This document shows positions 18,690-50,700 of a stretch of DNA of 64,000 nucleotides, piece after piece. The stretch lies in contig DATDVZ010000007.1 of assembly GCA_036517475.1 (NCBI GenBank), positions 1,706 to 65,705 on the forward strand, read 5' to 3'. The notes beneath the pieces were generated by a model. It did not search any database. It was given only the letters and a program-made list of their open reading frames with translations, and was not told the origin of the DNA. How positions within the stretch are numbered: position 1 is the stretch's first letter; each line of letters opens with the position of its first letter. This stretch comes from Minisyncoccota bacterium (GTDB lineage: Bacteria > Patescibacteriota > Minisyncoccia > Phycocordibacterales > Zambryskibacteraceae). The position numbers and the translations under genes are program-made.

Positions 18690-18848
18690 ATAGACCCTCG
18701 GGGCAAGCCCCGAGGTAATTAATACCGAGCTCATTCCATTCGCACTGAAGCGCGGCGAAGCCGCGCGGTATTAAACCTATATTAGCTCCTCGGCTCGGAA
18801 GTAAAAAAGTTTACTTTCTTACTTCTCTCGCTCTACGTCGCTAATAAA
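18690..18848 (+). repeat. structured GC-rich intergenic repeat, family R, copy 1
   Basis: ATAGACCCTCGGGGCAAGCCCCGAGG hairpin, TAATACCG...CGGTATTA enclosing GCGCGGCGAAGCCGCGC hairpin, conserved 3' module ...TCTCGCTCTACGTCGCTAATAA; near-identical ends to 26594-26756 (inverted) and 49098-49252. Confidence 0.8.
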
Positions 18849-18881
18849 AAAACCCCTCCTTATAAATGAGGGGGTGTGGGA

Positions 18882-19502
18882 TTAAACCCTTCGCTTGTTG
18901 GTATAGAGGCTTCTCCACCAACTTGAGGGTGACTCGTCGTACATTTCTTTACAAAGAGTTTTCGCTGATTCTGTAGTAAGGTATTTCATGTATGCATATG
19001 GCCGTGGAGTACTTTTGCCGGCAAGCCATGCAGCCGCCTCTTTATTGCCCTGCCACTCGTATTCTCGCAGCAGTAGGACTTGGTCTAGAACGTCGGCATC
19101 TTTGGCAACAAGGGCTTCGCGACTCTGGCGAGCAGCATATTCACGAGCAATTTCTGCTAGCTCTGGGAAAGGTAATCCGCCGAGCTGCTCATCAAGCACA
19201 GCCGCCTCGTCTTCACTTACATAGCGCTTGTGAATCCAGTTGTGATCATTAGTTCTGGATTCGCCGGTATCGTGTAGAAGGCACATCATGACAACTTTCT
19301 GCCAGTCCACTCCTTCCATTTTGGCAAGAAAGTAGCCAATGAACATTACTCGAAATGAATGCGTGGCAATGTTATCGGACATGTCATCAGTTAAGAGCGA
19401 CTGGCGATGAATCCGAGCAACTTTTCGCATCGTGCCAACTTCAAACAGAAACTGCACAATCCTCTCTGTGTCCACTTTTTCCTCCAAACAAGATCTGAAC
19501 AC
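18882..19502 (-). CDS. HD-domain phosphohydrolase, YfbR-like 5'-deoxynucleotidase
   Basis: HSFRV...LLHDTGE...D HD motif arrangement; GTG start inferred. Confidence 0.6.
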   Translation of the reverse strand: MFRSCLEEKVDTERIVQFLFEVGTMRKVARIHRQSLLTDDMSDNIATHSFRVMFIGYFLAKMEGVDWQKVVMMCLLHDTGESRTNDHNWIHKRYVSEDEAAVLDEQLGGLPFPELAEIAREYAARQSREALVAKDADVLDQVLLLREYEWQGNKEAAAWLAGKSTPRPYAYMKYLTTESAKTLCKEMYDESPSSWWRSLYTNKRRV

Positions 19503-19549
19503 AACCCTAGCATTTTTACATTAATTTTTAAAGCCCTCACTACAAAACC

Positions 19550-19577
19550 ATTCTCTTATTCTCGAGAATAAGAGAAT
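19550..19577. repeat. 28-bp perfect palindrome, copy B (about 45 nt upstream of HD gene)
   Basis: Identical to copy A; shared flanks CACTACAAA (5') and GATTTTGCAAAGATTATCAGCG (3'). Confidence 0.8.
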
Positions 19578-19676
19578 GGATTTTGCAAAGATTATCAGCG
19601 ATACTGGCTCAAGCAACACTAGCCCATTCCGGTTTTCTTAAGAAAACCGGAATTGATTTTAAAATAATCATTCCAG

Positions 19677-20198
19677 TTAATCAGAGGAAACCTCAAGTCT
19701 TCCAGTAATAACATATCCCGCAGATTCTAGTGCTTTCTTTTTATTGGAATTATTAGAAAATGACACTATTGTTTTTGATATATAAAGGTCTCCAAGTACT
19801 TCAACTTCAAACCTATAATCATTTGGATCAGATTCAACAAGTCCGATTTTTTTGAGAGCTTGTGAGGTGCTAATACCTTCAATACGCTTAATTTCCATGG
19901 TCTTTATTTTATTTTCTAAACCAACCCCCCTACCTTCATCACAGTGAGAATAAACTATTACTCCGCCTTTGTTATCTGCAATTGCTTTCATTGCTTTTGT
20001 AAGTTGAAGAGCACAATTACATTGTGTTGAGTGAAACGCCTCGCCAAAAAGACAAGTCGAGTGAATGCGTACAACGGGATTTCCAGCCTCCACATTGCCC
20101 AAGGAAAGTGAAACAAAATCTTTTCCACTAATTTTGTGATAATTGATTTTAAACTGACCGAATTCAGTCTGAATAATTGTCGTGGCTGTAATTGACAT
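19677..20198 (-). CDS. ribA: GTP cyclohydrolase II
   Basis: RIHSTCLFGEAFHSTQCNCALQL matches RxHSECLTGDxxxSxRCDCGxQL zinc/GTP-binding signature. Confidence 0.7.
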   Translation of the reverse strand: MSITATTIIQTEFGQFKINYHKISGKDFVSLSLGNVEAGNPVVRIHSTCLFGEAFHSTQCNCALQLTKAMKAIADNKGGVIVYSHCDEGRGVGLENKIKTMEIKRIEGISTSQALKKIGLVESDPNDYRFEVEVLGDLYISKTIVSFSNNSNKKKALESAGYVITGRLEVSSD

Positions 20199-20219
20199 AA
20201 TTTTAGAAAATGAATTGGA

Positions 20220-20996
20220 TTAATTAATCTGTCTCATCCCCCATTTCACAGTTGTCAGTTTTTCAATTTTCTCAAAAATCAAAAATTCTGCCGCAATGCC
20301 AACCAATGCGATTATAATGATCCCCGCTATTACCTGATCGAACTTGAAAACCCACTGAGAAAGCCAGATGTATTTACCAAGCCCCCCAGCAGTTACAACA
20401 AGCATTTCTGCCCCAACAAGCGATCGCCACGCTGAACCAAAACCGGTGCGCAGTCCGCTTAAGATATTGGGCAAAGAACCCGGTAGAACAACCATCATTA
20501 CTGTTTTAAATGTACTCAATTTAAAATTTTTGGCAGTGAGCCACCAAACCTGGTCAATACTTCTTACTCCACCGATCACACTGTAAATTATTTTTGTAAA
20601 ACTGGATATCGCAACCATCGCCCAGATCGTTTCGCGAGTAAAACCAAAAATAAGAATGAGAAGCGGAAGCCAGGCTAAAGACGGAATAAGATATACGGCA
20701 GATATTATCGGTGAGAACATTTTCCTCACTGTTTCATTTATACCGATAAGGGTTCCCAGAATAACTGCAATTAGAGATGCAAAAACAAAGGCTGGGAAAA
20801 TATTCAATAAACTAATAATAAAAAGTCTTGGCAAAACACCGTTTATCAATAGTTCCCAGAATTTAGGGAAAACCTCACTCGGAGGAGGAAAGAGCATGGT
20901 GAAGAAATTACTTCCGGTAGCTAACAACTGCCATATAATTATTACGGCTATAAAAGGCAGAGCGCCCAGAAGTATATTTTTAGTTTTGTCCGCCAT
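20220..20996 (-). CDS. ABC transporter permease (NitT/TauT family)
   Basis: 258 aa, 6 TM, EAA-like loop; operon with SBP and ATPase. Confidence 0.7.
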   Translation of the reverse strand: MADKTKNILLGALPFIAVIIIWQLLATGSNFFTMLFPPPSEVFPKFWELLINGVLPRLFIISLLNIFPAFVFASLIAVILGTLIGINETVRKMFSPIISAVYLIPSLAWLPLLILIFGFTRETIWAMVAISSFTKIIYSVIGGVRSIDQVWWLTAKNFKLSTFKTVMMVVLPGSLPNILSGLRTGFGSAWRSLVGAEMLVVTAGGLGKYIWLSQWVFKFDQVIAGIIIIALVGIAAEFLIFEKIEKLTTVKWGMRQIN

Positions 20997-21996
20997 AAAT
21001 TTCTTCCTGTAATTTTTTTAATTTGTCTGCAAACCTTAAATCATATATATCTTCCAGAGACAGGTCTTTGTCTATGATTCCCAGTTCTTTAGACTTTTTG
21101 ACCATCTCCATGCCAATTTTAGGGTCCTGCCAAACCGTGTTAATTACTGATGAGTTCCATTCGGACACTATTGTGTCTGGAGAATAGTCTACCGCCCCAT
21201 TGGTTTGTTCAATAATATCTTCCGACACAAGTATCGCTGCGGCGAAAGGATCGTTCTTGATAAGGGCGTGTGCCTCGCCATAAGCGTCAAAGAATTTGTC
21301 TAGCAAATCCTGGTTTTCATTGAGATATGCTGTGGTAACTAGAATTGAAGTTCTGGGTTGTAGTTGTTTGAAATGTTGGCTATTTTCCCATTCTGGTAAA
21401 ACAATCGCGCCTTCCTCAATAAATCTACTTGCATCTTGCGCCCCCACAATAGCAGCATCTGACAATTTTCTTTGCATTAGTGTTGAAACTCGGTAAGGAC
21501 CTTCAATGTCTATAAAGTTTATTTTACTGACATCTATATTATCTTTGTCCATTGCCACTCTAAAAGGGACATCATCTGAACCACCCGGAGAGACCGAGAC
21601 TGTTTTCCCGTATAAATCCCTAAAACTATTGATATTACTATCTGGCCTGACAAATATATATGTTGCAGAAAGAGACATTGGAGTAATAACTCTGGCGGGA
21701 ACTCCGCTTGCAATAATTGGAATAAAATCAACCATTCCGGCAGAACCGATATCAATATGCCCAGAGATCAACGCCAGCCTTACTTCTGCTCCGCCTTTCA
21801 TTGGCACCATCATTACTTCTAGATCGTGTTTTTTGAAATATCCGCCTTCTGAGGCCACCACAATAGCTGAGGAACCCAGACTTTGCGCACTATATCCGAT
21901 TCTAATCTCACTGTTAGTAATTGGCTTATCCTTTAATAATATTGCTCCAATAATTACTATTCCAATAACTACAATTATATATATTGATTTATTCAT
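20980..21996 (-). CDS. ABC transporter substrate-binding protein (NMT1/THI5-like)
   Basis: 338 aa, N-terminal signal/TM, periplasmic-binding-protein type 2 pattern. Confidence 0.55.
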   Translation of the reverse strand: MNKSIYIIVVIGIVIIGAILLKDKPITNSEIRIGYSAQSLGSSAIVVASEGGYFKKHDLEVMMVPMKGGAEVRLALISGHIDIGSAGMVDFIPIIASGVPARVITPMSLSATYIFVRPDSNINSFRDLYGKTVSVSPGGSDDVPFRVAMDKDNIDVSKINFIDIEGPYRVSTLMQRKLSDAAIVGAQDASRFIEEGAIVLPEWENSQHFKQLQPRTSILVTTAYLNENQDLLDKFFDAYGEAHALIKNDPFAAAILVSEDIIEQTNGAVDYSPDTIVSEWNSSVINTVWQDPKIGMEMVKKSKELGIIDKDLSLEDIYDLRFADKLKKLQEEIYGGQN

Positions 21997-22808
21997 ATTT
22001 TTTTAATTTGGGTTTCTAAAATCTGACCCAATACCTGCCTGTCGCTCAAATCACTATTAAGCGCCAGGTCAAACTCCAAAGCGATTTCTTTTTCGATGTC
22101 TTTGGCGATAGCGACAAACCCAGAGCTTCTTGGATCGCGTGGACGTGGCAGATCTATTTTATAAGTTTTTCTTATTTTTGCTGGCAAATTTGAGAAAAGG
22201 TAAATCCGATCAGCCAGGGTCAGAGCTTCATTGACGCTGTGAGTCACAAAAATTATTGTTTTTTTTGTTTCCTGCCAGATTTTTTCAAGATTTGATCTCA
22301 TATACTTCCTATACTCAGGATCAAGTGCAGAAAATGGTTCATCCAGAAGAAGGATTTTAGGGTTTGAAATAAGAGATCTAGCAATTATCACTTTTTGTCT
22401 CATGCCCCCAGAAAGCTTGTGCGGGTACCAATCTTTATATTTCTCGAGTCCCACCAGATTCAGATACTTCAAGACCATTTTATTTTTCTCTGCCGATAGT
22501 AGGTTTGAGTTCTCTAAGCCAAAAACAATATTTCCATGGACAGTTCTCCATGGAAATAGTGATGAGTCTTGAAATATCATCATTTTATCTGTATCTGGAC
22601 CAATGACTTTCTGCCCACCAAGAGTAATCTCACCCGAAGTCGGCTCAAGAAAACCTGCTATAAGATATAAAAACACAGTCTTACCAGAGCCACTCGGACC
22701 AAGTATGCAAACAAATTCACCCATCTCAACCTCCATACTTATCTGATCAATAACATGGTGTTGATTAGAGTCCTCAAAAACCTTACTTAGGTCTTTAACT
22801 TTCAACAT
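21993..22808 (-). CDS. ABC transporter ATP-binding protein
   Basis: Walker A GPSGSGKT, signature LSGGMRQKV, Walker B LLLDEPFSALD. Confidence 0.8.
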   Translation of the reverse strand: MLKVKDLSKVFEDSNQHHVIDQISMEVEMGEFVCILGPSGSGKTVFLYLIAGFLEPTSGEITLGGQKVIGPDTDKMMIFQDSSLFPWRTVHGNIVFGLENSNLLSAEKNKMVLKYLNLVGLEKYKDWYPHKLSGGMRQKVIIARSLISNPKILLLDEPFSALDPEYRKYMRSNLEKIWQETKKTIIFVTHSVNEALTLADRIYLFSNLPAKIRKTYKIDLPRPRDPRSSGFVAIAKDIEKEIALEFDLALNSDLSDRQVLGQILETQIKKI

Positions 22809-22845
22809 TATTTTAGTCTTTCAGAACTAGTAACTATGTCAAGTA

Positions 22846-23322
22846 TTAATCCAGATTAAAATGTTTTGAAAAATCTTCTTTTTCCCAAGGAAAAACAATT
22901 TTCTCATCATCTTCACTCAAAACGTAAAAATCAGGAAGCTTTTGGCATTTATTTTTATTAGTAGCAAGAGTGGCTGTTTTAATTTCAGATGGTTCATATT
23001 TTTTTACAATAATCTCTGCGACTGTTTTAAGAGTGAAACCTGTGCTTGAGATTTCATCAACTAACAATAATTTTTTGTTTTTTAAGTTGATATCAGGTAG
23101 GTAAGTAATTTTTATTTCTTTTTTATTGTCCTTTTCCATTAATTTTGATGAAACAATCAACACATTACTTATGCCGATCTTCTTTGATAAGAAATATAGA
23201 GGTATTAGCCCACCTGTTGCAAGACCAACTATGTAATCGGGGTTAAAATCACTTGTCTTGATTACTGAAGCCAACGAGTTAGCAGCGACTTCAACTTCTT
23301 CCCATGTAATTTTTCTAACCAT
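22846..23322 (-). CDS. type I phosphoribosyltransferase (purine PRTase-like)
   Basis: PRPP-binding motif LLLVDEISSTGFTLK. Confidence 0.6.
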   Translation of the reverse strand: MVRKITWEEVEVAANSLASVIKTSDFNPDYIVGLATGGLIPLYFLSKKIGISNVLIVSSKLMEKDNKKEIKITYLPDINLKNKKLLLVDEISSTGFTLKTVAEIIVKKYEPSEIKTATLATNKNKCQKLPDFYVLSEDDEKIVFPWEKEDFSKHFNLD

Positions 23323-23346
23323 AGATCAATCAATAAATCATTAATA

Positions 23347-23811: not shown

Positions 23812-23901
23812 AAATTTTCAAAAAAACTCTAGCATTTTTAACCCGTCATCGCCACTCTCCATTGCGGACAAGTCTTATTTTTTATACCCCACTACAAATT
23901 T

Positions 23902-23929
23902 ATTCTCTTATTCTCGAGAATACAAGAAT
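23902..23929. repeat. degenerate copy C of the 28-bp palindrome (ATTCTCTTATTCTCGAGAATACAAGAAT)
   Basis: Left arm identical, right arm 2 mismatches; same 5' flank ACTACAAAT; sits between divergent genes 23811(-) and 24082(+). Confidence 0.7.
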
Positions 23930-24081
23930 GGTTTAAATCATCAAAATTGCACTTCATAAAGAATTCATTTTTATACTATGAAATGATTATTATTTTGTTA
24001 TAGTGTTGTCATAATGCGTTAATGTAATCGTCATTATAAAAGTGCGTTATTTAATTATTTATCATTTATAAAATCAAGAAT

Positions 24082-26593: not shown

Positions 26594-26756
26594 GTTTATT
26601 AGCGACGTAGAGCGAGAGAGGTAAAAAAGTAAACTTTTTTACTTCCGAGCCGAGGAGCTAATATAGGTTTAATACCGCCTGTCTTTGTCGCGCTTTTAGT
26701 GCGAGCGATAGGGAGTTCGGTATTAATTACCTCGGGGCTTTGCCCCGAGGGTCTAT
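26594..26756 (-). repeat. structured GC-rich intergenic repeat, family R, copy 2 (inverted)
   Basis: Reverse complement matches copy 1 over both terminal modules with a divergent central hairpin; 3' end of element lies about 20 nt from ATL gene ATG. Confidence 0.8.
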
Positions 26757-26836
26757 ATCCTGCCATAAGTAGTTACCTTTCCTCTGGGAATTCTTAAAGC
26801 CATTATAAGAACCCTTTCATTAAAACTGAGCATCTT

Positions 26837-27605: not shown

Positions 27606-28487
27606 ATGGAAATGATGCCAAGGACTCTTACTTTGGTCCGTCATGGCGAGTCAGAGAGCAATGCCGTCAAACGCAAAGCAGAGAAAGGCATACATCACCC
27701 GCGCGAGGCTGAGCTTATGAAAGTCCACACTTCGCGCAGGAGGCTCACAGCACGCGGCGTAAGACAAGCAATCAGTGCTGGTGAATGGCTTCAGAATTAT
27801 TTCGCTGAGGAAGCAAAGCATCGTGGAGATTTTGTTTATGAAAGAGTTGTCGGGTATGTCTCACCATATGTGCGGGCGATGGAAACTGCGGGAAACTTAA
27901 ACTTGCCAATAACATGGCGAGCGGACGCTAGGCTTGCAGAGCGCAACTGGGGCGATCTTGATCAGCTCACGTATGAAGAACGCATTGCTAAGTATGCAAC
28001 AATCAAAAACCGCGAGAGTCATGGGATATTCTGGCCGGCTGGCAATGGCGAGACATTGCAGATGCTTGGCACTCGCATGTGGCAGCACTTCGATATGCTC
28101 TGCAGAGAGCATGAAGGCGATGATGTTGTAGAAGTATCTCATGGCGAGACAATCCTCACTCAGCGATTCATGCTGGAGAGATGGTTGCCTGAAGATCTGG
28201 TTCAAATGATGCTTTCGACTGATTCCAAGCTCGCAAAGGAAATTCTCGGCAGAGAAGCTGACTTGCAAAACAAGATTATAAACGGACGAATCATTCAGTA
28301 TACGCGCGAGCGAGAAGACGGTACTTGGGATACCAAATATTGCCGAGTACGGCTTGTGGCGCCATCTGCCCTAGATGATCCAAGAAGGAATCTGGATTGG
28401 AGTGCTATTGTCCGCCGGCAATTCACCACAAATGAATTGCTTGAATATGTTTCTAAATTTCCTCATTTCCTAGAGGAAGTTGCATAA
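27606..28487 (+). CDS. histidine phosphatase family protein (phosphoglycerate mutase-like)
   Basis: LVRHGESESN RHG motif; terminator ACCGCTCTGCGAGCGGT+TTTTTT at 28489-28515. Confidence 0.6.
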   Translation: MEMMPRTLTLVRHGESESNAVKRKAEKGIHHPREAELMKVHTSRRRLTARGVRQAISAGEWLQNYFAEEAKHRGDFVYERVVGYVSPYVRAMETAGNLNLPITWRADARLAERNWGDLDQLTYEERIAKYATIKNRESHGIFWPAGNGETLQMLGTRMWQHFDMLCREHEGDDVVEVSHGETILTQRFMLERWLPEDLVQMMLSTDSKLAKEILGREADLQNKIINGRIIQYTREREDGTWDTKYCRVRLVAPSALDDPRRNLDWSAIVRRQFTTNELLEYVSKFPHFLEEVA

Positions 28488-28516
28488 TACCGCTCTGCGA
28501 GCGGTTTTTTTATTAA

Positions 28517-28737
28517 TAAAAAGAGACCGCCCGAAAGCGGTCTCCAAGTAGTAACCCCCCACAGATATATCCCAGGGCATGCTCCTTGGGACGCCTAGAC
28601 GGTGGCCCGTTGCACAAAGGTGCACTCTTTGTGTTTTCAGGGTGTCAGCCCAACTCCGAAGAGTTGTTAACCTGCTGTGGGGGCCGGCCGCTCGCCACCT
28701 TAGTATTCAAGATGGGGCTTGCCGAATTACTGATCTA
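28517..28737 (-). ncRNA. candidate structured small RNA (unknown family)
   Basis: Minus-strand TTGACA(28770-28765)-16nt-TAATAT(28748-28743) promoter; GC-rich (in AT-rich genome) multi-hairpin body incl. AACTC-UUCG-GAGUU; ends at GAGACCGCCCGAAAGCGGTCTC hairpin (28523-28544) + U-run; no ORF. Confidence 0.4.
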
Positions 28738-28830
28738 AATGCATATTACTTTACTCGCCAATAATGTCAACCATTAAATAATGCAAACTATGATTTGCCC
28801 GTCTCAAGTTATAACTGCGTAGTGTCGTTA

Positions 28831-29613
28831 TCAAACTTTCCTTTGTTGCTCCTGAATTATTAATTCAATCGGACTATGGTCTGAAACTTTATTAGGAAGA
28901 ATGCGAGTATTTATTTTAGATTCAGTCGCAGTTTTTCGGTCAACAAAAAGATGATCAGTTTTTAGAGGAACTCTTATACCAAACTTAGCCAGAAATACTG
29001 CGATTCTATTTGTGAGTACTGGGACATTTTCAGTGTAACGGCTATCAAGAGTCGGGCCAATATCCTTTGTGACGCTCGCAAATTCCGGTGAGAGAATTGT
29101 GTTTGTTCTTCTAACTTCTCCCGGAAGACCGAGGTTAAAATCTCCTCCGAAAACAATTCGTGCAGCCGACGGCAGAGAGACTCTAAGAATTTCTTTTAAT
29201 TTTTTAGTTTCTCTCATACGTATGCCCAGCCTAAGTCCAGAATGTTGATGAACTGAGCCAATATATATCTCTCGTCCATCTTTCTCAAACTGTCCCAATA
29301 ATAATCCGAAGCCTGGATGTATGAGAAATGGCGTTGGGTGCATAAATGAAAATGAATGCAATGTGCTTTTCTTCAGTAAAAAGTTGTCTCGATAAAGAAT
29401 TGCAAGATGACTTTGTTTTCCGAGTTCATTATTAAAACCGTGAAGAATTTTATATGAAATTCCTTCTGGAATTGCGGCCATGGCAACTCCTGTAAATTCC
29501 TGAAGAAGCAGAAAATCATACTGGCCATCCTTAAGTACTTTATTCAAAAATTCTTTCAATCCCGTTTGATATCCTTTCTGGCAGTTAAGACTGAGAATTT
29601 TGATATCTTTCAT
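28831..29613 (-). CDS. endonuclease/exonuclease/phosphatase (EEP) family protein
   Basis: DFLLLQE and SDHSPIELII motifs. Confidence 0.55.
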   Translation of the reverse strand: MKDIKILSLNCQKGYQTGLKEFLNKVLKDGQYDFLLLQEFTGVAMAAIPEGISYKILHGFNNELGKQSHLAILYRDNFLLKKSTLHSFSFMHPTPFLIHPGFGLLLGQFEKDGREIYIGSVHQHSGLRLGIRMRETKKLKEILRVSLPSAARIVFGGDFNLGLPGEVRRTNTILSPEFASVTKDIGPTLDSRYTENVPVLTNRIAVFLAKFGIRVPLKTDHLFVDRKTATESKINTRILPNKVSDHSPIELIIQEQQRKV

Positions 29614-29639: not shown

Positions 29640-30068
29640 CTATTTCCACAATTTAAAGCTGCCTGTTATTTCTTTGAGAATTTTTTTGTCGCCAAAAACT
29701 CCAACTCCTAAATAATCTAGAGACTCATCATTTTTTAGAGATATGGATTTCTCAAGTTCAATATCATCTGTAGTTTCAATCATATCTCTGATGAAATTTA
29801 TAGAGAGTAAATTTCTTCTTCTAATTTCTTGAATAAGCGGGTACAACTCTTCACTATTTGCACTTAACACCACAATCGCGTATTGAGAATTGCGCGGATG
29901 GGTAATTTTATCCTTACTTAAAAAATAGTTCCCTGTTCCAAAATTATCTTTAAGTTGATTGCCAAAATATGCGGAAATATGGGCAACAGTATTTAATACT
30001 TGCCAAGATTCCAAATCCTTTCTCACAACAATAACTATTCTTTTTGAAAAATCCTGAACCTTGTCCAT
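29640..30068 (-). CDS. PTH2-like / DUF2000-like protein
   Basis: KRIVIVVRKDLE...AHISA and GVGVFGDKKILKEITGSFKLW resemble peptidyl-tRNA hydrolase PTH2 fold pattern (weak). Confidence 0.4.
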   Translation of the reverse strand: MDKVQDFSKRIVIVVRKDLESWQVLNTVAHISAYFGNQLKDNFGTGNYFLSKDKITHPRNSQYAIVVLSANSEELYPLIQEIRRRNLLSINFIRDMIETTDDIELEKSISLKNDESLDYLGVGVFGDKKILKEITGSFKLWK

Positions 30069-30119
30069 TTATACAATATAGCAAACCCACAAGTTACCGT
30101 CTGGTATGAGATTGGAACT

Positions 30120-31521: not shown

Positions 31522-31625
31522 TGTTTTCTTAAAAAATCCTGCACCTTATCCATTTATACAATATAGCAAACTAAGAGATTGTAAAAAAACCTCACATATT
31601 GTTGTGAGGTTTTGTCAGCTAACCT

Positions 31626-38321: not shown

Positions 38322-38576
38322 TTATAATACTGGTTTACCAAACTCTATCAAATTTAGTTTCTTCTCACGTCGCCAACCTTTGAGTTGAGCCTCTCGTTTT
38401 AGTGCTGAACTTCTATCTTGATGTTTTTCTGTATATAACACGCTAACGACTTTACTTGATTTCGTATAATGACCACCTTTTCCGTTTTTGTGCTCATTAA
38501 AGCGCCTATTAACATCTGTTGTAATGCCTGTATATAAAGTTCCATTTCCACATTTTAAAATATATACAAAATACAT
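38322..38576 (-). CDS. GIY-YIG nuclease domain protein (YhbQ/UPF0213-like)
   Basis: FVYILKCGNGTLYTGITTDVNRRFNEH GIY-YIG core. Confidence 0.7.
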   Translation of the reverse strand: MYFVYILKCGNGTLYTGITTDVNRRFNEHKNGKGGHYTKSSKVVSVLYTEKHQDRSSALKREAQLKGWRREKKLNLIEFGKPVL

Positions 38577-38670
38577 AAAGGCTTCGGTTCCGGGCTTCGA
38601 CTGATCTCAGCCGAATGTCCTCAGCCCACTTCGCCTGGCTCGCACTGAGCGAGCGTAGCGAGTCGAAGTG

Positions 38671-38741
38671 CTGCCGGACTTGGACTCGAACCAAGATACT
38701 CGCCTCCAAAGGGCGATGTCCTACCATTAGACGATCCGGCA
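38671..38741 (-). tRNA. tRNA-Gln (anticodon UUG)
   Basis: Manual fold: acceptor UGCCGGA/UCCGGCA, D arm GUCU..GGAC, anticodon stem UCGCC/GGCGA with loop CUUUGGA, T arm CUUGG-UUCGAGU-CCAAG, discriminator G; CCA not encoded. Confidence 0.7.
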
Positions 38742-38777
38742 ATACGAAAAATATACCATAAAAAATAACAATATTTC

Positions 38778-38807
38778 TATTTGTTAATTCGCTCGAATTA
38801 ACAAATA
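38778..38807. promoter_or_regulatory. 30-bp palindrome TATTTGTTAATTCG-CT-CGAATTAACAAATA (downstream copy)
   Basis: Near-identical to 39128-39157; between ArsR stop and tRNA-Gln. Confidence 0.55.
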
Positions 38808-38838
38808 AGTAGGTAAAAATAATATTGCCATGCTAAAA

Positions 38839-39099
38839 CTATAACTCCTCAATTATTTTTGAAGCAATTCTTTCTAACTTTTTTGATAATGAATAATACA
38901 TCTCAAGGCTTCTCTGTTCCTTGTCTACTATATCCACGTTAAATAAAATCAAGAGATGTCTAGAGGTAGCACTGAATGATAGTTTTATCGCACCGGCAAT
39001 CTCGCCTACAGTTGCTTCGTTATTCTTTTTTAAATATGAAAGTATCGCAAGTCTCCGTTTATTACCAATTGCCTTTAATATTTTTTCTAATTGCTTCAT
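38839..39099 (-). CDS. ArsR/SmtB-family transcriptional regulator
   Basis: 86 aa; RLAILSYLKKNNEATVGEIAGAIKLSFSATSRHL HTH. Confidence 0.7.
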   Translation of the reverse strand: MKQLEKILKAIGNKRRLAILSYLKKNNEATVGEIAGAIKLSFSATSRHLLILFNVDIVDKEQRSLEMYYSLSKKLERIASKIIEEL

Positions 39100-39127
39100 T
39101 ATTATTGTTTTTTATTTTTAATAGTCT

Positions 39128-39157
39128 TATTTGTTAATTCGTTCGAATTAACAAATA
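39128..39157. promoter_or_regulatory. 30-bp palindrome TATTTGTTAATTCG-TT-CGAATTAACAAATA, candidate ArsR operator
   Basis: 12-2-12 inverted repeat about 30 nt upstream of ArsR ATG. Confidence 0.55.
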
Positions 39158-39174
39158 ATGATGTTGATAGTATT

Positions 39175-40227
39175 TTATACTTGTTCATCTTTGTTGAATA
39201 ATTTAATCAAGGCAAGCTCAATGGGAAGCTCGGGAGTGTATGCCCGGGAGACAAATTCCTGAGCCAGGAGAAGTTCAGAGAGCACTTCGGATCCAATGGC
39301 GCATTCGGGATCCTTTGATACTGCTTTTATAAACTTAAAATCATCATCTGATAACTCCCCTTTTACTTCATCTTCTTCCATACCTCCTCCAAATTTGAGA
39401 AGTAAGACAAATCTCATCTTCTGCAGAACAAGTCTCATAAAAATTTTCATATCAACATTTTGTGATGCAGCTTTATGAACGTATCCTAGAGCTTTTTCAA
39501 GAGATTTATCCGAGACAGATTTTACAAAATCATTAATCAGAGTATTTTGAGGCGCTCCGGTAACTGTTTCTACTTCTTCAATTGAAATTTTCTTATTCTT
39601 GCTGTAGCTCATCACCTTCTGCAGTATTCCCTGCGCATCGCGAAAAGAAGCATCAGCCAAAAGTGCGATGAGTTCTGCAGATGAGGCATCAATCGTAAAA
39701 CCCTCTTTTTTTGAAATATTTGCCACCAGTTCTCTTAAAATTTTCTGGCTTGGTCTTTTAAATTGGTAAATTTGGCAGCGCGAAAGTATAGTTTCAGGAA
39801 TTTTTTCCATTTCTGTCGTTGCTAGAATAAAAATCACGTATTCCGGAGGCTCCTCAAGAGTTTTGAGGAATGCATTCCAAGCTTCTTTGGTAAGCATGTG
39901 AGCCTCATCGATAATGTAAATCTTGTATTTTGATTCAAACGGGACACTTGAAACAGATGTCTTGATTTCCCTGACATCATCAATCCCGCGATTGGAAGCG
40001 GCGTCAATCTCATGCAGATCGCTTGGCGAGACATCCAAGTCCTTGGCAATAATTCTAGCAACAGAAGTTTTGCCAATTCCGCGCGGTCCGGCAAAAAGAT
40101 AAGCGTGAGAAATGTTTCCCAGATCAAGGGCTCCTTTTATAACTTTAACTATATGATCTTGGCCTATAACATCCCCCCACTTTTGCGGGCGGTACTTGCG
40201 ATAAAGAGAAGTAGTCTCAGATGACAT
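39175..40227 (-). CDS. dnaX: DNA polymerase III subunit gamma/tau (short form)
   Basis: LYRKYRPQKWGDVIGQ, Walker A GPRGIGKT, IYIIDEAHML, SRC motif; start set at MSSETTSLY rather than upstream Met of the ORF. Confidence 0.7.
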   Translation of the reverse strand: MSSETTSLYRKYRPQKWGDVIGQDHIVKVIKGALDLGNISHAYLFAGPRGIGKTSVARIIAKDLDVSPSDLHEIDAASNRGIDDVREIKTSVSSVPFESKYKIYIIDEAHMLTKEAWNAFLKTLEEPPEYVIFILATTEMEKIPETILSRCQIYQFKRPSQKILRELVANISKKEGFTIDASSAELIALLADASFRDAQGILQKVMSYSKNKKISIEEVETVTGAPQNTLINDFVKSVSDKSLEKALGYVHKAASQNVDMKIFMRLVLQKMRFVLLLKFGGGMEEDEVKGELSDDDFKFIKAVSKDPECAIGSEVLSELLLAQEFVSRAYTPELPIELALIKLFNKDEQV

Positions 40228-41282: not shown

Positions 41283-41479
41283 TTTTCACTCCTTCCTTGT
41301 TTGGTCATATGTTCAAGAACGTTTACTAAAATGGAAACTACCATTTTAGTTTTTAAAAGTCAACCCCGTCAAATAATTCGCTTTGCGAATTCCTGCGAAG
41401 CGGGATTTAACAGGGTCAAGCCTAGAGTAGGAACAATGAATAAAGAGTGAGGAATAAAAAAATGAACCTTTTGGGTTCA

Positions 41480-45589: not shown

Positions 45590-45639
45590 AAAATGTTCCA
45601 CTTGGTGGTGAAACCGCCACGTGGCTGCTGTGGTAAGTA

Positions 45640-45667: not shown

Positions 45668-45698
45668 AACTAAAGAAACCCAGACAGAGGAGTTTAAA

Positions 45699-46004
45699 AT
45701 GAAACTCAGCCCCAGTGAGCTAGATTTGCTTACTGAAAAGAAGGTTGTAAAAACGAATAACAAAAAGAGAAACTTGCTTTTAATTGGAGTTGGTGTGGCG
45801 GCTTTAGTCTTTGGGACACCCGTCGGTTGGCTCATCTTCGGAGCACTTTGGCCGGCGATGTCATTTTTGGTAAGTGCTGTCACTGGACTTGATCCCAGAC
45901 TTGCCTCAACGATTGGGCTTTTTCTTTCTTTCATCGTTTTTGGCGCCGGGGTTCTGACCTTATATAAAATCGTAAGAAAAAAGTTATCTCGAACGCAAGC
46001 TTAG
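45699..46004 (+). CDS. small membrane protein
   Basis: 101 aa, 3 TM helices. Confidence 0.4.
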   Translation: MKLSPSELDLLTEKKVVKTNNKKRNLLLIGVGVAALVFGTPVGWLIFGALWPAMSFLVSAVTGLDPRLASTIGLFLSFIVFGAGVLTLYKIVRKKLSRTQA

Positions 46005-46094
46005 CTTGCGTTTTTCTTTTTAATTTATTATTTCTATCCTTTAAATTAATATTGATATTTGCAAATAAAATCTTTTTATAGTATCAATTCACCC

Positions 46095-48299
46095 ATGAGT
46101 AAAAAACTTTTAATTGTTGAGTCGCCGGCAAAAGCAAAAACGATTGGAAAATATCTCGGAGATGAGTACGAGGTTGTTGCCTCAGTCGGGCATATTCGTG
46201 ATTTACCTAAATCAAATAAAAAAGCAATTGATATTGAAGGCGGATTTATACCCCATTATGAAATCGTTAAAGGAAAAGAAAAAGTAATTTCAGAAATAAA
46301 AAGAAAAGCTTCAAAATCTGATGAAATAATCCTTGCTACAGACCCAGACCGCGAGGGGGAGGCTATTGCATGGCATATTTCCGAGCTCATCAAAAATAAG
46401 TCAGCAGAATCAGGAATCAAGAATCATGAATTAAGAATCAAAAGGGTTACTTATCATGAAATTACGGAAGATGCCATAAAAGAAGCGCTCGGGAATCCCA
46501 GAGATATTGATGAGAATTTAAAAACCGCGCAAGAAGCACGCAGGGTTTTAGACAGACTTGTCGGCTACGATCTTTCTGGTCTAATCTGGAAAAAGGTTCG
46601 ATATGGCCTCTCTGCCGGCAGAGTCCAGTCCCCTGCTCTGCGAATACTAATGGAGCGTGAACGTGAAATAAGAGCATTTAAGTCTGAAACATTTTGGACA
46701 ATTACCGCATTATTAAAAAATAAAAATAATATTGAGTATGTTTTCACATGCGAAGAAGAACCAAGGGATAAAAATGAAGTTGAACGAATAATTGATATCG
46801 GCAAAAAGGAAGATTGGGAAATTAAAGACATAAAAGAAACAGAGGTAAAGCGATCCCCCAGACCGCCATTTATTACTTCTACACTTCAGCAAGCGGCAAG
46901 CTCTCGGCTTGGATTTGCACCCTCAAGAACAATGGGTATTGCGCAAAAATTGTATGAATCCGGTTTCATAACTTACATGAGAACTGACAGTACAAATTTA
47001 AGCGAGAATGCAAAAAATCAAATCGCCTCGGTAGTGGAGAAAAAATTTGGCAGGCAGAATTTGCAATTACGAAACTATGCAAAAAAAAGCAAAAACGCTC
47101 AAGAAGCGCATGAAGCTATCCGACCTTCAGATTTATTCAGGGAAGGTGCCGGCCACAATGAAGAGCAAAAAAAGTTGTATAAATTAATCTGGGGAAGAGC
47201 AGTTTCAAGCCAAATGATTGATGCAAAAGTTTTAAGGACCAGAGTCTTGGCGAATACTATAAATGAAAATATTCCTAATTTTGTGCTGAACGGTTCCCGC
47301 ACAATAAGCGACGGCTGGCTTTTAGCTGATCCCATTGCCAAAACAGAAGATGTTGAAGTACCAAAATTTCAAAAGGAAGAAAAACTGAAATTATCTTCAA
47401 TTGATTCAGAGGAAAAGCAAACTCAACCTCCGGCAAGATATTCAGAGGCAGGATTAGTTAAAGAGTTGGAAAAAAGAGGCATTGGAAGGCCCTCAACTTA
47501 TGCTTCAATCATAAAGACACTTCTGGACAGAGGTTACATTGTTAAGGAGCAGAGAGCGCTTCTTCCGACAGATACTGGAGATGTTGTGAGCTCATTTTTG
47601 GAGGAAAATTTTGCAAATTATATCAGCGACACATTTACTGCGGAGATGGAGGATGAACTGGATGAGATAGCGGCCGGTAAAAGAGGTTATGAAAAAACCT
47701 TACGCGACTTCTATACCCCCTTTTTAAAAGACGTGAAGTCAAAGGAAAAAATCACAAAATTGACAAACCTCGGTGAGGCCGACCCAAAATGGAAATGCCC
47801 AGTTTGCGGCTCCTCAATGATTATTAAGCTTGGAAGAAGCGGAAAATTTCTTTCATGTTCAAGATTCCCAGATTGTAAAGGCGCGCGAACAATAGAGGGT
47901 GAGGAGCTCGCGGGGCCAAAAGATACTGGGGAAATATGTCCTGAGTGCGGCAAAGCAAATTTGGTAGAAAGGGATGGTAAATTTGGGCGTTTCATTGCCT
48001 GTTCACGATATCCAAAATGCAAATTTGTTAAAAAAAGTCCGGAAGAGGAAAACCGCAGCAAGACAGGTGTAAAATGCCCCGTTTGCAAAGAAGGTGAAAT
48101 GGTGGAGCGCCGAGGTCGCTTCGGAATTTTTTATTCATGTAGCAATTATCCTAGATGTAAAAACGCCATCAAGGCCAAGCCGACAGGAAATATCTGCCAA
48201 ATGTGCGGATCATTAATGATGGAAGGCACAAAGACTATACCTGAGCGTTGTAGTAATAAACAATGTGTAATGCATAATCCTCATAAAAATAAATTATAA
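46095..48299 (+). CDS. topA: DNA topoisomerase I with C-terminal zinc-ribbon repeats
   Basis: Start chosen at MSKKLLIVESPAKAKTIGKYLG (Toprim) rather than upstream Met at 46059; four C4 zinc ribbons at C-terminus. Confidence 0.85.
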   Translation: MSKKLLIVESPAKAKTIGKYLGDEYEVVASVGHIRDLPKSNKKAIDIEGGFIPHYEIVKGKEKVISEIKRKASKSDEIILATDPDREGEAIAWHISELIKNKSAESGIKNHELRIKRVTYHEITEDAIKEALGNPRDIDENLKTAQEARRVLDRLVGYDLSGLIWKKVRYGLSAGRVQSPALRILMEREREIRAFKSETFWTITALLKNKNNIEYVFTCEEEPRDKNEVERIIDIGKKEDWEIKDIKETEVKRSPRPPFITSTLQQAASSRLGFAPSRTMGIAQKLYESGFITYMRTDSTNLSENAKNQIASVVEKKFGRQNLQLRNYAKKSKNAQEAHEAIRPSDLFREGAGHNEEQKKLYKLIWGRAVSSQMIDAKVLRTRVLANTINENIPNFVLNGSRTISDGWLLADPIAKTEDVEVPKFQKEEKLKLSSIDSEEKQTQPPARYSEAGLVKELEKRGIGRPSTYASIIKTLLDRGYIVKEQRALLPTDTGDVVSSFLEENFANYISDTFTAEMEDELDEIAAGKRGYEKTLRDFYTPFLKDVKSKEKITKLTNLGEADPKWKCPVCGSSMIIKLGRSGKFLSCSRFPDCKGARTIEGEELAGPKDTGEICPECGKANLVERDGKFGRFIACSRYPKCKFVKKSPEEENRSKTGVKCPVCKEGEMVERRGRFGIFYSCSNYPRCKNAIKAKPTGNICQMCGSLMMEGTKTIPERCSNKQCVMHNPHKNKL

Positions 48300-48440
48300 T
48301 TGGTAAGCAGGCACACTACTGTGCCTGCGCTAATAGTCTTTGTGAGGCACAGCGATGTCGCATCAGCAGATGCGACCGCGAGCCGGGGTCGCGAGCGCTT
48401 TCGCTCGACGGAGCGAAGGCGACTTGTGACCTAAAACTAT
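48300..48440. repeat. GC-rich multi-hairpin insert between topA stop and a diverged duplicate of topA's last 17 codons
   Basis: Hairpins GCAGGCAC-ACUAC-GUGCCUGC, GUCGCAU-CAGCAG-AUGCGAC, UUCGCUC-GACG-GAGCGAA; followed (48441-48493) by copy of topA 3' end. Confidence 0.6.
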
Positions 48441-48496
48441 CCCGGAGCGCTGTTCTAATAAAGCGTGTCCAAACCATAATCCTCATAAATTAAAAA

Positions 48497-49000
48497 ATGC
48501 AAAATAAATGTGGTTATATTAAAATTACTATAGTGGATAAAAAGAAAAAAAAGGCCTCAAGTGCATTTACATTGATTGAAGTATTAATAGTAATCGGGAT
48601 AATTGCGGTCCTCGCAGGAATAGTTCTTGTTGCCATTAATCCCGGCAGGCAGTTTGCCCAAGCTAGGGACACTCAAAGGATAAGTAACATCAATGCAATT
48701 TTAAATGCAATCGGACAATATACAATTGATAATAAAGGAATGCTTCCGGTTGGAATCCCCGCAAAAGGAGATAACCCAATTGAAATAGATCAGACTATCT
48801 GCTCTGCAATTGTACCGACATACCTGCCGGCACTTCCAACAGACCCATCATCAAGTTCCAAAGGTGCTTCAATTACTGACTGTGATAGTGTTGCAACAAG
48901 CACCGTTCTATACGCAATATTTCAGGACAATAATGGCAGGATTACTGTAAGCACAGAAAGGGGCGAGATCGGGACCTCGACTATATCTGCTACCAGATAA
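48497..49000 (+). CDS. type IV pilin (prepilin-type N-terminal methylation domain)
   Basis: AFTLIEVLIVIGIIAVLAGI class III signal; terminator AAACCCGCATTTCGCGGGTTTTT at 49060-49085. Confidence 0.65.
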   Translation: MQNKCGYIKITIVDKKKKKASSAFTLIEVLIVIGIIAVLAGIVLVAINPGRQFAQARDTQRISNINAILNAIGQYTIDNKGMLPVGIPAKGDNPIEIDQTICSAIVPTYLPALPTDPSSSSKGASITDCDSVATSTVLYAIFQDNNGRITVSTERGEIGTSTISATR

Positions 49001-49097
49001 CAAAATTAAGAGATTAAAATCCAAAAGAGGAAAATCTAAAATTTAGAATACGTGAAACAAAAACCCGCATTTCGCGGGTTTTTGTTTTGCATGCAAT

Positions 49098-49252
49098 ATA
49101 GTCCCTCGTGGCAAGCCCCGAGGTAATTACGGAACTCGCTTCGCTTATCCATTTAGCGCGGCAAGCCGCGCAGTATTGGACTATATTAGCTCCTCGGCTC
49201 GGAAATGGAAAAGTAAAACTCTTCCATTTCTCTCGCTCTACGTCGCTAATAA
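49098..49252 (+). repeat. structured GC-rich intergenic repeat, family R, copy 3
   Basis: ATAGTCCCTCGTGGCAAGCCCCGAGG..GCGCGGCAAGCCGCGC..TATATTAGCTCCTCGGCTCGGAA..TCTCGCTCTACGTCGCTAATAA. Confidence 0.8.
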
Positions 49253-49259
49253 GGATAGA

Positions 49260-49460
49260 TTACATAGCTGCGCCTCCTGACTGCTTCTTGTAGGTGAAGA
49301 GAGAATAGAGTGCAGAAAGACCAACCAAAATATAAACAATCATAGAGATACCGCTGCCCAGAATACTCTCAACTACGTTACCAAGACCAACCCCCATCAG
49401 GCCCCAGTTTAGGCCTCCGATTACGAGCAGAACCCAGGCAACTGTTTGTAAACCTTTCAT
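49260..49460 (-). CDS. DUF378-family small membrane protein
   Basis: GGLNWGLMG motif. Confidence 0.55.
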   Translation of the reverse strand: MKGLQTVAWVLLVIGGLNWGLMGVGLGNVVESILGSGISMIVYILVGLSALYSLFTYKKQSGGAAM

Positions 49461-49600
49461 AATATTTTTTAAAAAAATATTTATTAAATCGACTCTATTA
49501 AATTATGAGGCATTCCCAGAAGCTTACAAGACCTTTTTCCCCAATATCTTATAGCTAAACAGAGCCCTAGAACGCTTTCTGTGTTAAAATAGTAAATTAA

Positions 49601-50086
49601 ATGAAAATAATCTGGGACAAAGTAACATCTTTTTCAAAGTTTTGCGCGCTGATTTTTTTTCTTTTAATTCTCCCTCTTTGGATTGTATATGTGATGAATA
49701 TTTACAAAGAAACATCTCACCTGTTAAGTAACAATAGCTCGCCAGTTTGTGAAGGAGCAAGTTGTACAAAAGAAACACAAGCAATTGAAAATTCAGGTGT
49801 TATGGGAACTGTAACAATTGGGGCCAAGTGCTCTGAAACCGAAAGGAGTAAGTGCAGTGGCAAGCCATATTCAGCACATCTTAAAGTTACTTACGAGAGC
49901 GGGAAAGTTATTACCCAAACTTTTGTTTCGCCAGACGGTAAGTTTCTTCTGCTTCTTCCTCCGGGAAGCTACATGATTTACAACGGCTCTGATAAGAATA
50001 CTGTCAGTTTTTCTCCCCAAAAGATATCAGTGGAAAAAAATAAAATTTCTTCTATAAATCTCTACTTTGAAAGCAATAGAGAGTAG
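49601..50086 (+). CDS. membrane-anchored secreted protein with carboxypeptidase-regulatory-like beta domain
   Basis: N-terminal TM; KVTYESGKVITQTFVSPDGKFLLLLPPGSYMI. Confidence 0.4.
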   Translation: MKIIWDKVTSFSKFCALIFFLLILPLWIVYVMNIYKETSHLLSNNSSPVCEGASCTKETQAIENSGVMGTVTIGAKCSETERSKCSGKPYSAHLKVTYESGKVITQTFVSPDGKFLLLLPPGSYMIYNGSDKNTVSFSPQKISVEKNKISSINLYFESNRE

Positions 50087-50140
50087 TTTGATTTAAATTT
50101 CTTGATGTGCTAATTTGATATTGGAAGAAAGGAGGGCCAA

Positions 50141-50380
50141 ATGGAACCCCATCAAAAAGATCGTGAAAAAACAGCTATCTTTGAAAGAGCCTGTGCGGGT
50201 TGCAGAGCCGTTCTGCAGATCAATCCACAAAACATCAACCCAAGGATCCCGTATATTCTATGCCCTACCTGCGGACTTGAGTGTATGATTCCTCAGGACG
50301 CTATTTATATGGCCGAGCTGATTCTTAAGGAAAAAAGAAGAAAGTACGGCCGACGAAACAAAGCTATAAATCCCGAATAG
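50141..50380 (+). CDS. small zinc-ribbon protein
   Basis: CxxC...CxxC; terminator AAATCCCGAATAGGGATTTTTTT at 50368-50390. Confidence 0.4.
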   Translation: MEPHQKDREKTAIFERACAGCRAVLQINPQNINPRIPYILCPTCGLECMIPQDAIYMAELILKEKRRKYGRRNKAINPE

Positions 50381-50388
50381 GGATTTTT

Positions 50389-50700
50389 TTATAAACGACG
50401 TAGAGCGAGAGAAATGAAAAATTCTTATTTTTCATTTCCGAGCCGAGGAGTTTATATAGTATCCAATTATATAAACGACGTAGAGTGAAAAAGCGAAAAC
50501 ATGGAGCTTTTGCAAGGTCGGAGCACGACGGTGCGAGACAGGATCGAAAGATTTTTCAGTAGAAAAATACTTTTGATAGAGAAGTGAGAAAGTTTACTTT
50601 CTCACTTACGAGCCGAGGTGAGGAAGCGAATACATGGAGCCCATTCGGGTCTGAAAGACCCTCAGGGTCTTAAACGACTTCGCAAGACTTTGAGCTCCGA
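50389..50700 (-). repeat. family R repeats, two partial/variant copies in tandem (inverted orientation)
   Basis: TTATAAACGACGTAGAGCGAGAG...CCGAGCCGAGGAG (rc of 3' module) at 50389-50466 and a second rearranged copy 50471-50700. Confidence 0.6.

Follow-up and report, generated by a model that had tools for sequence, protein, structure and literature searches.

Is a GC-rich repeat of about 160 nucleotides (nt) that folds into several hairpins and recurs along a bacterial genome a gene, a recombination site or a piece of mobile DNA? The question is raised by a stretch of 64,000 nt (the window) from a Minisyncoccota bacterium (GenBank assembly GCA_036517475.1, contig DATDVZ010000007.1, positions 1,706 to 65,705 of the forward strand), in which a reading of the letters alone (the original prediction) had recognised at least four copies of such a repeat and had offered three explanations: a small-RNA gene family, non-autonomous mobile elements or recombination sites. 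The genomes of Patescibacteria, the group of this bacterium, are regarded as streamlined and poor in mobile elements. The analysis described here indicates that the repeat is probably a small, non-coding and non-autonomous mobile DNA element, in line with the second explanation. By contrast, the small-RNA explanation lost ground because of random orientation, the lack of a promoter or terminator and the lack of an Rfam match.

Copies and anatomy of the element

The 3' module of the repeat was turned into a search pattern (CTCGGCTCGGAA-N(18-40)-CTCGCTCTACGT), which matched the window four times, at 18789-18838(+), 26605-26654(-), 49193-49243(+) and 50398-50447(-), and not once in 100 shuffles of the window. 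Scoring every window position with R1, a covariance model built from 116 copies, recovered the same four copies with 84-89 bits (E about 1e-26 to 1e-28) and two relics (50566-50625(-), 18.3 bits; 50468-50513(-), 12.3 bits) without any further match, indicating that the four-copy family is real. With 4-6 copies in 64 kb, copy density in the window is high. The copies had been called near-identical, but their pairwise identities are just 76-88% (c1/c2 88%, c1/c3 79%, c2/c3 76%), and the core alone is invariant. The described contrast of GC-rich islands in an AT-rich genome is likewise modest, with 46-49% GC in the elements and 39% in the window.

The element is about 85-165 nt in length and has neither an open reading frame (ORF) nor terminal inverted repeats. 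It runs 5' to 3' from a stem P1 directly into P4 (5-7 bp), a conserved internal loop and a hairpin P5. In the 5' domain of c1 (18688..18782, + strand, as read from the sequence), P1 is formed by ATATAG (18688-18693) paired with CTATAT (18777-18782) and encloses P2 (CCTCGGGG-CAAG-CCCCGAGG), the clamp TAATACCG/CGGTATTA and P3 (GCGCGGC-GAA-GCCGCGC). The three modules proposed originally, namely the 5' hairpin CCTCGGGG-CAAG-CCCCGAGG, the clamp TAATACCG...CGGTATTA and the 3' module, are thus present in c1-c3; retention of the variable hairpin stem did not extend to c2, whose version GCGCGAC-AAAG-ACAGGC pairs poorly. This expanded 5' domain is optional. Some copies carry just a minimal P1 hairpin of 5-6 bp with a TATTAA or AGTA loop, while expanded ones hold GC-rich sub-hairpins each followed by GGTATT, and hairpin indels among copies are not multiples of three.

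The 3' part of c1 starts, on the + strand, with core strand A (TCCTCGGCTCG, 18787..18797) and continues through P5 (GAAGTAAAAAAG-TTTA-CTTTCTTACTTC, 18798..18825) to core strand B (TCTCGCTCTACGTC, 18826..18839). P5, a hairpin of 12 bp rich in A/T, varies in sequence but keeps its pairing. The P4 3' strand GCTAA and then the terminal TAA (18840..18847) close the copy, as judged from covariation and paralogous pairs. The two internal loop strands TCCTCGGCTCG / CTCGCTCTACGTC, both C/T-rich, make up the conserved core; RNAalifold pairs GGC with GCU within it, yet those columns never vary. Units start with (A/G)TAAA.. (ATATAG.. in the lineage of the window) and end with ..GC(T)AA-TAA. In c1 the P1 3' strand passes without a break into the P4 5' strand (CTATAT-TAGC, 18777..18786, + strand), so that one splint would appear to pair with both termini. 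From this reading of the sequence, the central TAT of the splint could pair with either flanking ATA, both ends of a folded single strand or circle would be juxtaposed within one helix, and the junction GCTA-ATA-TAGG of a circle would form one continuous helix.

Copy c1 (18688..18847, + strand, 88.1 bits) is full-length and antisense to both flanking genes, a tRNA-binding-domain gene at 18304-18642(-) and an HD-domain gene at 18882-19502(-), with its 3' end adjoining the A-run of the terminator hairpin of the latter. The full-length c3 (49096..49252, + strand, found by pattern and R1) begins 10 nt past the terminator of a pilin-like gene (48497-49000), and its 3' end is 7 nt away from the stop codon of a small membrane-protein ORF (49260-49460(-)). 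The segment 50389-50700 is a rearranged cluster as predicted: on the - strand it combines a short but complete copy with a fragment from a 3' end and a decayed copy. The short copy c4a (50386..50472, 87 nt, 89.1 bits) combines a minimal P1 hairpin with an intact 3' module; its insertion point is the terminal ATA of the preceding fragment, and its 3' end overlaps the T-run of a terminator at 50368-50386. That fragment (..TTTCACTCTACGTCGTTTATA, 50470..50513, matched by R1 at 50468-50513 with 12.3 bits) lacks core A and P5, and the decayed c4b (50566..50700, 18.3 bits) shows CACCTCGGCTCGTAA, an intact P5 and a degraded core B, with 5'-domain hairpin remnants standing ahead of it.

Insertion at TA and copying within genomes

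The copies had been described as strictly intergenic, but c2 (26596..26758, - strand, full-length, located by sequence and R1) interrupts an Atl/MGMT-like ORF (PF01035) in sense orientation. The 5' part of the split gene (26756-26833) ends at the element's own TAG, and the 3' part runs on to 26357. Deleting 26597-26755 restores an Atl ORF of 105 amino acids (aa), a length shared with hundreds of homologues, and the PF01035 domain is complete in the rejoined protein (positions 2-80 of 81). Its junction reads ...TYGRI|NRAAGGHPMMARKV..., the closest homologues reading TYG(T/A/L)INRAAGGHPMMA (junction motif TYGxINRAAGGHP). Empty orthologous sites exist in the DNA of two relatives, tatggtgcaATAAATcgt and tatggcttgATAAACcga, of the form ...ATAAA(C/T)... 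(uninterrupted sequence tatggtgcaATAAATcgtgct and tatggcttgATAAACcgagct), while the filled window site reads ggcaggATA[TAGACC...GCTAATA]AACcgggca. No intact Atl allele closer than 82% was present in the protein database. A second intragenic copy lies within a DUF1905 ORF of L078 (L-numbers label the compared loci or contigs), where it is sense, in frame and stop-free and adds 36 aa. This ORF covers profile positions 4-45 with or without the insert and scores higher after excision, and its junction repeat is AATAAAGG. A systematic excision-and-ORF test gave c2 and L078 as the two clear intragenic cases, the remainder being noisy. The copy in L044, considered as an antisense intragenic one, actually lies upstream of the gene start.

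Copying is seen in pairs from the same metagenome-assembled genome (MAG) that have unrelated flanks, L037/L097 (97% over 177 nt) and L063/L105 (98% over 89 nt). Because the similarity stops exactly at the ends, these pairs define the termini. Head-to-tail tandems, in which units share a single ATA, occur in the window c4 cluster and in L010, L092 and L098, as expected if the 3' end of the element recreates the target. The flanking repeat measures 2-8 nt (TA, ATA, GTAA, ATAAA, AATAAAGG) with TA as the minimum, and TA within (A/G)TAA(A) is the common denominator of the junctions; a TA duplication fits all junctions examined and is there indistinguishable from the element termini. The element inserts at TA inside (A/G)TAA(A), and once it is removed exactly, the target is whole again; new sites in the same genome receive copies, and re-insertion at its own 3' end gives rise to tandems. 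Landing sites are mostly between genes, often in terminator A/T runs and occasionally in genes, with no orientation preference. The association with TAA stop codons and terminator A/T runs follows from the target (A/G)TAA(A).

A covarying fold around a core common to many lineages

An exact search for the 24-nt core (CTCGGCTCGGAA-hairpin-CTCGCTCTACGT) over species-representative genomes matched at least 118 eight-kb tiles from at least about 90 MAGs. Nearly all carriers bear Patescibacteria names (Paceibacteria/-ota, Kaiser-, Yonath-, Nomura-, Taylor-, Azam-, Komeili-, Buchanan-, Doudna- and Shapirobacteria, together with many co-assembly bins labelled 'Saccharibacteria'), and a few short contigs belong to bins labelled otherwise. 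The family is widespread in Patescibacteria, mainly in Parcubacteria/Paceibacteria lineages. Neither the core pattern, run over IMG/VR, nor blastn searches of PLSDB and a phage genome collection gave any match. Rfam 15, at the gathering threshold and at E <= 10, gave no match over any copy in the window or in eight other loci, its only matches elsewhere being tRNAs and an FMN riboswitch. A full-text literature search, by core sequence and by candidate phyla radiation (CPR) combined with miniature inverted-repeat transposable element (MITE) or RNA-motif terms, returned nothing relevant. In the first 100 tiles (648 kb), R1 gives only about six copies besides the seeded ones, so most genomes are low-copy, with roughly one copy per 100 kb.

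Covariation of the P4/P5 pairs was assessed over 116 copies with shuffles and slid partners as controls. Paired cells amounted to 90%, versus 76% in shuffles and 39-55% with slid partners, and cells changed on both sides numbered 311, versus 84 +/- 7 and 53-84, respectively. Single P4/P5 positions take AU, GC, CG and UA pair types, and P1 covaries as well (ATAAAGGTT/AACCTGTAT, ATATAGTCC/GGACTATAT, TAAACCAAT/ATTGGTTT and ATATATGCC/GGCATATAT). The original prediction had named the failure to find further copies and covariation as grounds for giving it up; the wide search gave many copies with strong covariation. Fold z-scores were -4.1 to -4.7 (-4.3 on the + strand and -4.7 on the - strand). That stem sequences covary with pairing kept suggests that the active form is a folded single strand. 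G.U pairs were not in excess over A.C mismatches on either strand (32 vs 52 in P5, 28 vs 21 in P4). The hairpin loops are CAAG (C-AA-G), C-AGA-G, C-GAA-G, G-ATTA-C and G-AGTA-C, with no GNRA or UNCG loop among the element hairpins. C-GNA-G type loops are characteristic of stable DNA mini-hairpins. Given the missing G.U excess and loops that are not GNRA/UNCG, the active strand is more likely DNA than RNA, to which the loop types add weak support.

A proposed mechanism and the points that weigh against it

We propose that the element is non-autonomous and that its copying would involve a single-stranded intermediate (more likely DNA), folded such that the splint would hold both ends together. 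The core loop would be recognised by a protein acting in trans, probably a conserved chromosomal one rather than a fast-evolving transposase, and integration would occur at TA in (A/G)TAA(A). That the family is a small, non-coding and non-autonomous mobile DNA element of this general kind seems to us the probable answer, and any particular enzyme class would be an unlikely guess. A bolder version, to which we give little credence, holds that the 25-nt loop and the splint form a self-processing nucleic acid (a small ribozyme or a structure-specific single-stranded DNA substrate) that is excised as a circle and re-integrated at TA. A housekeeping enzyme only (ligase, type IA topoisomerase, RtcB or Xer-type recombinase) could then suffice, with no dedicated transposase. 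Self-processing would explain why the same core occurs across deep lineages, why no transposase is nearby and why both intragenic copies are sense with intact gene halves; if true, such a mechanism of core and splint would be truly new.

Several observations count against mobility. No transposase or recombinase was tied to the element in the window or in the 8-kb tiles of the 118 loci, and no ORF-bearing autonomous version was found in 0.9 Mb of loci searched via orphan half-sites. The window has no recognisable transposase or integrase as judged by inspection of all ORF translations, Pfam searches with those that were unclear and tblastn with three approximate queries for Y1 transposases. RayT/IS200-like Y1 transposases (PF01797) are present in 3/118 loci (899 kb), each flanked by a hairpin repeat that differs from one locus to the next. 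Orientation is unbiased relative to gene direction and divides 2:2 in either half of the window, which speaks against the lagging-strand single-stranded DNA route of IS200/IS605, and the lack of terminal inverted repeats argues against a DDE transposase. c2 was present in 10/10 contigs compared (of 17 with the gene, at >= 99.2% identity), without within-species presence/absence polymorphism among these 10. Most genomes appear to have few copies, as the six or so extra ones in 648 kb indicate. The invariance of the core in the main set is partly ascertainment because the core was the exact-match search pattern. Further copies recovered with R1 either differ by 0-1 changes in the 24-nt core or are badly decayed, and this bimodal distribution of intact and decayed copies, together with core conservation in deep lineages, would fit selection for a host function too.

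Candidate partners were considered among the neighbours of the copies. Neighbour-gene clustering of 749 ORFs gave no family in >6/118 loci, and tRNA adjacency (6/118 loci) was at background level. The RayT/IS200 type was rejected as mobiliser since the RAYT-like genes (REP-associated tyrosine transposases, REP standing for repetitive extragenic palindrome) carry their own repeats: the flanking hairpins of the three loci (GAACCAGCAAGGCGACGCCTTGCTGGTTC, AAAGGGGGTCAGGTACCCTTTTTA and GTCAAGGTGAGTCCTTGAC) are unrelated to the element, so these are ordinary REP-RAYT units. Of the large serine recombinases near six copies, most (4/6) run up against the 3' ends of tRNA genes; they therefore mark integrated islands and are not partners of the element. 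A small GIY-YIG nuclease was set aside as well, being near copies in three loci or contigs only. L098, the sole candidate for an autonomous version, turned out to consist of chance matches within thyX-like and rplK-like genes.

Alternative explanations

One alternative, which we regard as unlikely and which would be compatible with a mobile origin, is a domesticated structural repeat with a host function at the DNA or transcript level, similar to REP and bacterial interspersed mosaic elements (BIME). Such a repeat would be kept for binding a conserved host factor (nucleoid protein, topoisomerase or ribonuclease), for blocking an exonuclease or for bidirectional termination. It would account for a core kept across many CPR lineages with lineage-specific compensated stems, for copies that are either intact (0-1 core changes) or heavily decayed, for the many copies adjoining gene ends and terminators, for an antisense P2 that scores as a terminator-like hairpin and for the low copy number in most genomes. 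However, genes are interrupted (c2, L078), positions are not common to different genomes, and no host factor was found. Nor are divergent promoter regions avoided: element-bearing gaps comprised 56 tandem ('++' 26, '--' 30), 23 convergent and 21 divergent ones, versus 70/14/16% tandem/convergent/divergent in the background, so that divergent gaps make up 21% of the former and 16% of the latter.

Independently transcribed small RNAs or cis-acting RNA elements, with the loop as a protein-binding or tertiary motif, are a doubtful alternative. The strong covariation of two stems around an invariant loop, the stable fold on both strands and the fact that some copies begin exactly at the stop codon of a co-oriented upstream gene would suit them. 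By contrast, copies face their neighbours at random, with 57 co-oriented and 60 opposed upstream genes and 52 co-oriented and 56 opposed downstream ones. The flanks of copies are unrelated and contain no conserved promoter or terminator; the sole -10-like string sits at the very 5' end, so that transcription from there would leave out the covarying P1 strand, and no T-run terminator belongs to the element. That some copies lie within ORFs speaks against RNA genes too, as do the lack of G.U enrichment over A.C, the absence of GNRA/UNCG loops and the lack of an Rfam match even at E <= 10.

An RNA-level mobile element, ribozyme-bearing or intron-like, whose loop would be a catalytic core, whose splint would align the ends for self-excision or circularisation and which would spread via reverse transcription or reverse splicing, seems to us very improbable. 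It would draw on termini that an internal guide may bring side by side, as is typical of self-processing RNAs, on the sense orientation of both clear intragenic copies with their gene halves intact, on the exact removal that restores the ORF and on the highly conserved core loop. An intron was rejected, as the c2 boundaries fit neither group I (0/4 possible 3' boundaries end in G) nor group II (no GUGYG...AY and no domain V), the element is too small for either, and the copy in L078 is read through in frame, so that no splicing is needed there. Moreover, there is no Rfam ribozyme match, c2 carries an in-frame TAG, the intragenic cases are only two, and no reverse transcriptase occurs among the neighbours. 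Finally, segmental duplication or an assembly artefact can be dismissed, even though assemblers treat the element as a repeat, several contigs of one species being broken there (L121, L124 and L125 have their first letters within it), because the flanks of all copies are unrelated, which excludes the recent segmental duplication named in the original prediction, the same insertions recur in independent ENA, JGI and Logan assemblies, and copies in unrelated MAGs number in the hundreds.

Comparison with known repeat families

The closest analogues are the bcr repeats of Bacillus, the Rickettsia palindromic elements and REP elements. Those of the Bacillus cereus group, bcr1-18, are structured repeats of 100-400 bp whose mobility is tied to a possibly duplicated TTTAT by an unknown mechanism (PMC6542083, PMC6199540). 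Like bcr1, the Patescibacteria element has secondary structure, no ORF and multiple complete and partial copies, and the TTTAT of bcr1 is the reverse complement of ATAAA, the target site found here. It differs in giving no blastn match in PLSDB, which probably includes bcr-bearing Bacillus plasmids according to PMC6542083 and PMC6199540. Moreover, bcr1 is confined to one species group, whereas the core described here is common to many classes of a phylum. To our knowledge, an invariant internal loop with a terminus-pairing splint has not been described for bcr1. The family is previously undescribed and of the kind of small structured interspersed mobile repeats. Its distinctive traits are the depth of core conservation, the two-domain fold with a terminus-pairing splint and the host range.

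Such repeats had been called unexpected in reduced genomes. A precedent weakens this claim: the Rickettsia palindromic elements (RPEs), reportedly described by Ogata and colleagues in 2000, are said to be selfish hairpin repeats of ~100-150 bp in a reduced genome, where they occupy intergenic positions and also protein-coding genes, in frame. The present element is also hairpin-forming, intergenic and in frame (L078), a likeness of functional class and not of homology. It belongs to another phylum with another sequence and has a defined site, TA in (A/G)TAA(A); most of its copies carry stops, in-frame survival being the exception, and c2 truncates its host gene.

With REP/BIME (REPIN)-RAYT systems the element shares short structured extragenic repeats at gene ends, structure kept over stem sequence and conserved single-stranded nucleotides beside a hairpin, as well as an enzyme that would act in trans, and RAYT-like genes exist in CPR. 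By contrast, the RAYT-like genes of L024, L053 and L012 are flanked by species-specific hairpins instead of this element, the window is without RAYT, and the core is constant across lineages whose RAYT hairpins differ. The element is also larger, has two domains and has two copies in ORFs. As a separate observation, the three REP-RAYT-like units with a Y1_Tnp (IS200-like) of 224-235 aa lie at L024 4322-5106, L053 1872-2601 and L012 7028-7890.

Palindrome-associated transposable elements (PATEs) of the IS200/IS605 type resemble it in having no inverted repeats, subterminal hairpins, a short specific target and seamless restoration, although their no-duplication feature is not separable here from a 2-3 nt duplication. 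Their internal guide beside a hairpin pairs with an end or target, to which P4 plus the putative splint would be formally analogous. They differ in that our element has no orientation bias relative to gene direction, a proxy for replication direction, or to the window strand switch near 44.7 kb, either side of which carries + and - copies, and that it has two end structures unlike each other, a guide-end pairing that is a 5-7 bp Watson-Crick stem and no TnpA/TnpB partner in the tiles and window examined.

MITEs (Correia, IS630/Tc1-type) are likewise small, non-coding and multi-copy with an AT-rich target, and a TA duplication is compatible with every junction; the lack of an ORF, filled versus empty orthologous sites and 97-98% identical paralogues are MITE-type features found here. 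The ends are, however, direct repeats, (A/G)TAAAGG../ATATAG.. versus ..GC(T)AATAA, and not inverted ones, no related full-length IS was found, the internal structure covaries, and the end sequences are not conserved as transposase sites. Integron attC sites were rejected: the ends TTAGC/GCTAA covary and are not R''/R' boxes (RYYYAAC...GTTRRRY), copies are dispersed in both orientations, and no integrase is adjacent.

A 24-nt core found in Parcubacteria, ABY1 and Microgenomates represents a new marker of genome dynamics and assembly breaks in an uncultured group, and the element is a source of gene disruption and in-frame peptide insertions. It also poses a mechanistic puzzle, having no inverted repeats, ORF or strand bias and a core conserved beyond usual transposase sites. 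The protein that recognises the loop, once found, might point to an activity in recombination or nucleic-acid processing that CPR have in common. For annotation, the covariance model is ready for use and keeps these repeats from being taken for small-RNA genes or spurious ORFs.

Other features of the window and compared loci

Two GC-rich segments proposed as relatives of the family did not prove to be so. The first follows tRNA-Gln (38577-38670; local alignment p >= 0.04 versus shuffles, no model match). Here, within 38322-38741(-), a GC-rich spacer of 94 nt that contains a long-range stem (CTTCGACT...AGTCGAAG) separates tRNA-Gln from the ORF of a small GIY-YIG nuclease (PF01541), whose homologues also adjoin copies of the element, or lie close to them, in L078 and L034. 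The second is the insert at the topA 3' end (48288-48432; p >= 0.35 versus shuffles, no model match). The last ~19 codons of topA are duplicated (48231-48287 and 48433-48489, 77% identical), the annotated ORF ending in the first copy, and the duplicates flank this 145-nt GC-rich, hairpin-rich insert, which is unrelated to the repeat family, has no Rfam match and looks like a small insertion bringing its own replacement 3' gene end. A further island of 178 nt and 57% GC (28553-28730, in the gap 28487-28831) showed no significant relatedness to the element by local alignment versus shuffles and no Rfam match at E <= 1; it may hold an unannotated structured RNA, for example a divergent signal recognition particle (SRP) RNA or 6S RNA.

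Among the compared loci, serine recombinase genes (Resolvase + Recombinase + Zn ribbon) at L019 4889-6630, L085 6050-7607, L086 2897-4558 and L070 300-2139 have 3' ends that run into tRNA 3' ends; the tRNAs in question are those for Asp, Glu, His and Gly, and the genes probably belong to islands integrated there. Another palindromic repeat, GC-rich and of the type CCTGCC(N)GGCAGG, is found in the Kaiserbacteria-like genomes of L021, L059 and L092 (upstream of the 3' module), L017 and L093, and stands in place of the P4 5' strand of the element in three copies.

At ~44.4-46.0 kb of the window, genes switch from almost all minus to almost all plus and the cumulative GC skew turns from falling to rising. 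This strand switch is origin-like and adjoins dprA and topA; no DnaA-box cluster was found there. A second, unrelated repeat family, a ~41-nt near-perfect palindrome (AAATCTATTCTCTTATTCTCGAGAATAAGAGAATAGATTT), lies at 18253-18293, 19543-19583 and 23895-23934; its copies are 88-93% identical, intergenic, within 6 kb of one another and operator- or terminator-like. The palindromes TTTGTTAATTCG(C/T)TCGAATTAACAAA at 38760-38809 and 39126-39175, probably operators, bracket an ORF (38839-39099) that is ArsR-like by eye. A hairpin followed by TTTAACAGGGT (ATTCCNGC....GGGATTTAACAGGGT) has three intergenic copies (41389-41419, 60227-60257 and 63858-63888). A 46-nt repeat, 91% identical between 30041-30086 and 31526-31571, stands upstream of two minus-strand genes and is probably a shared promoter or 5' untranslated region. 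Finally, the 5' half of tRNA-Trp is duplicated (62745-62778 and 62801-62834, 94% identity), 56 nt upstream of tRNA-Trp at 62802-62874.

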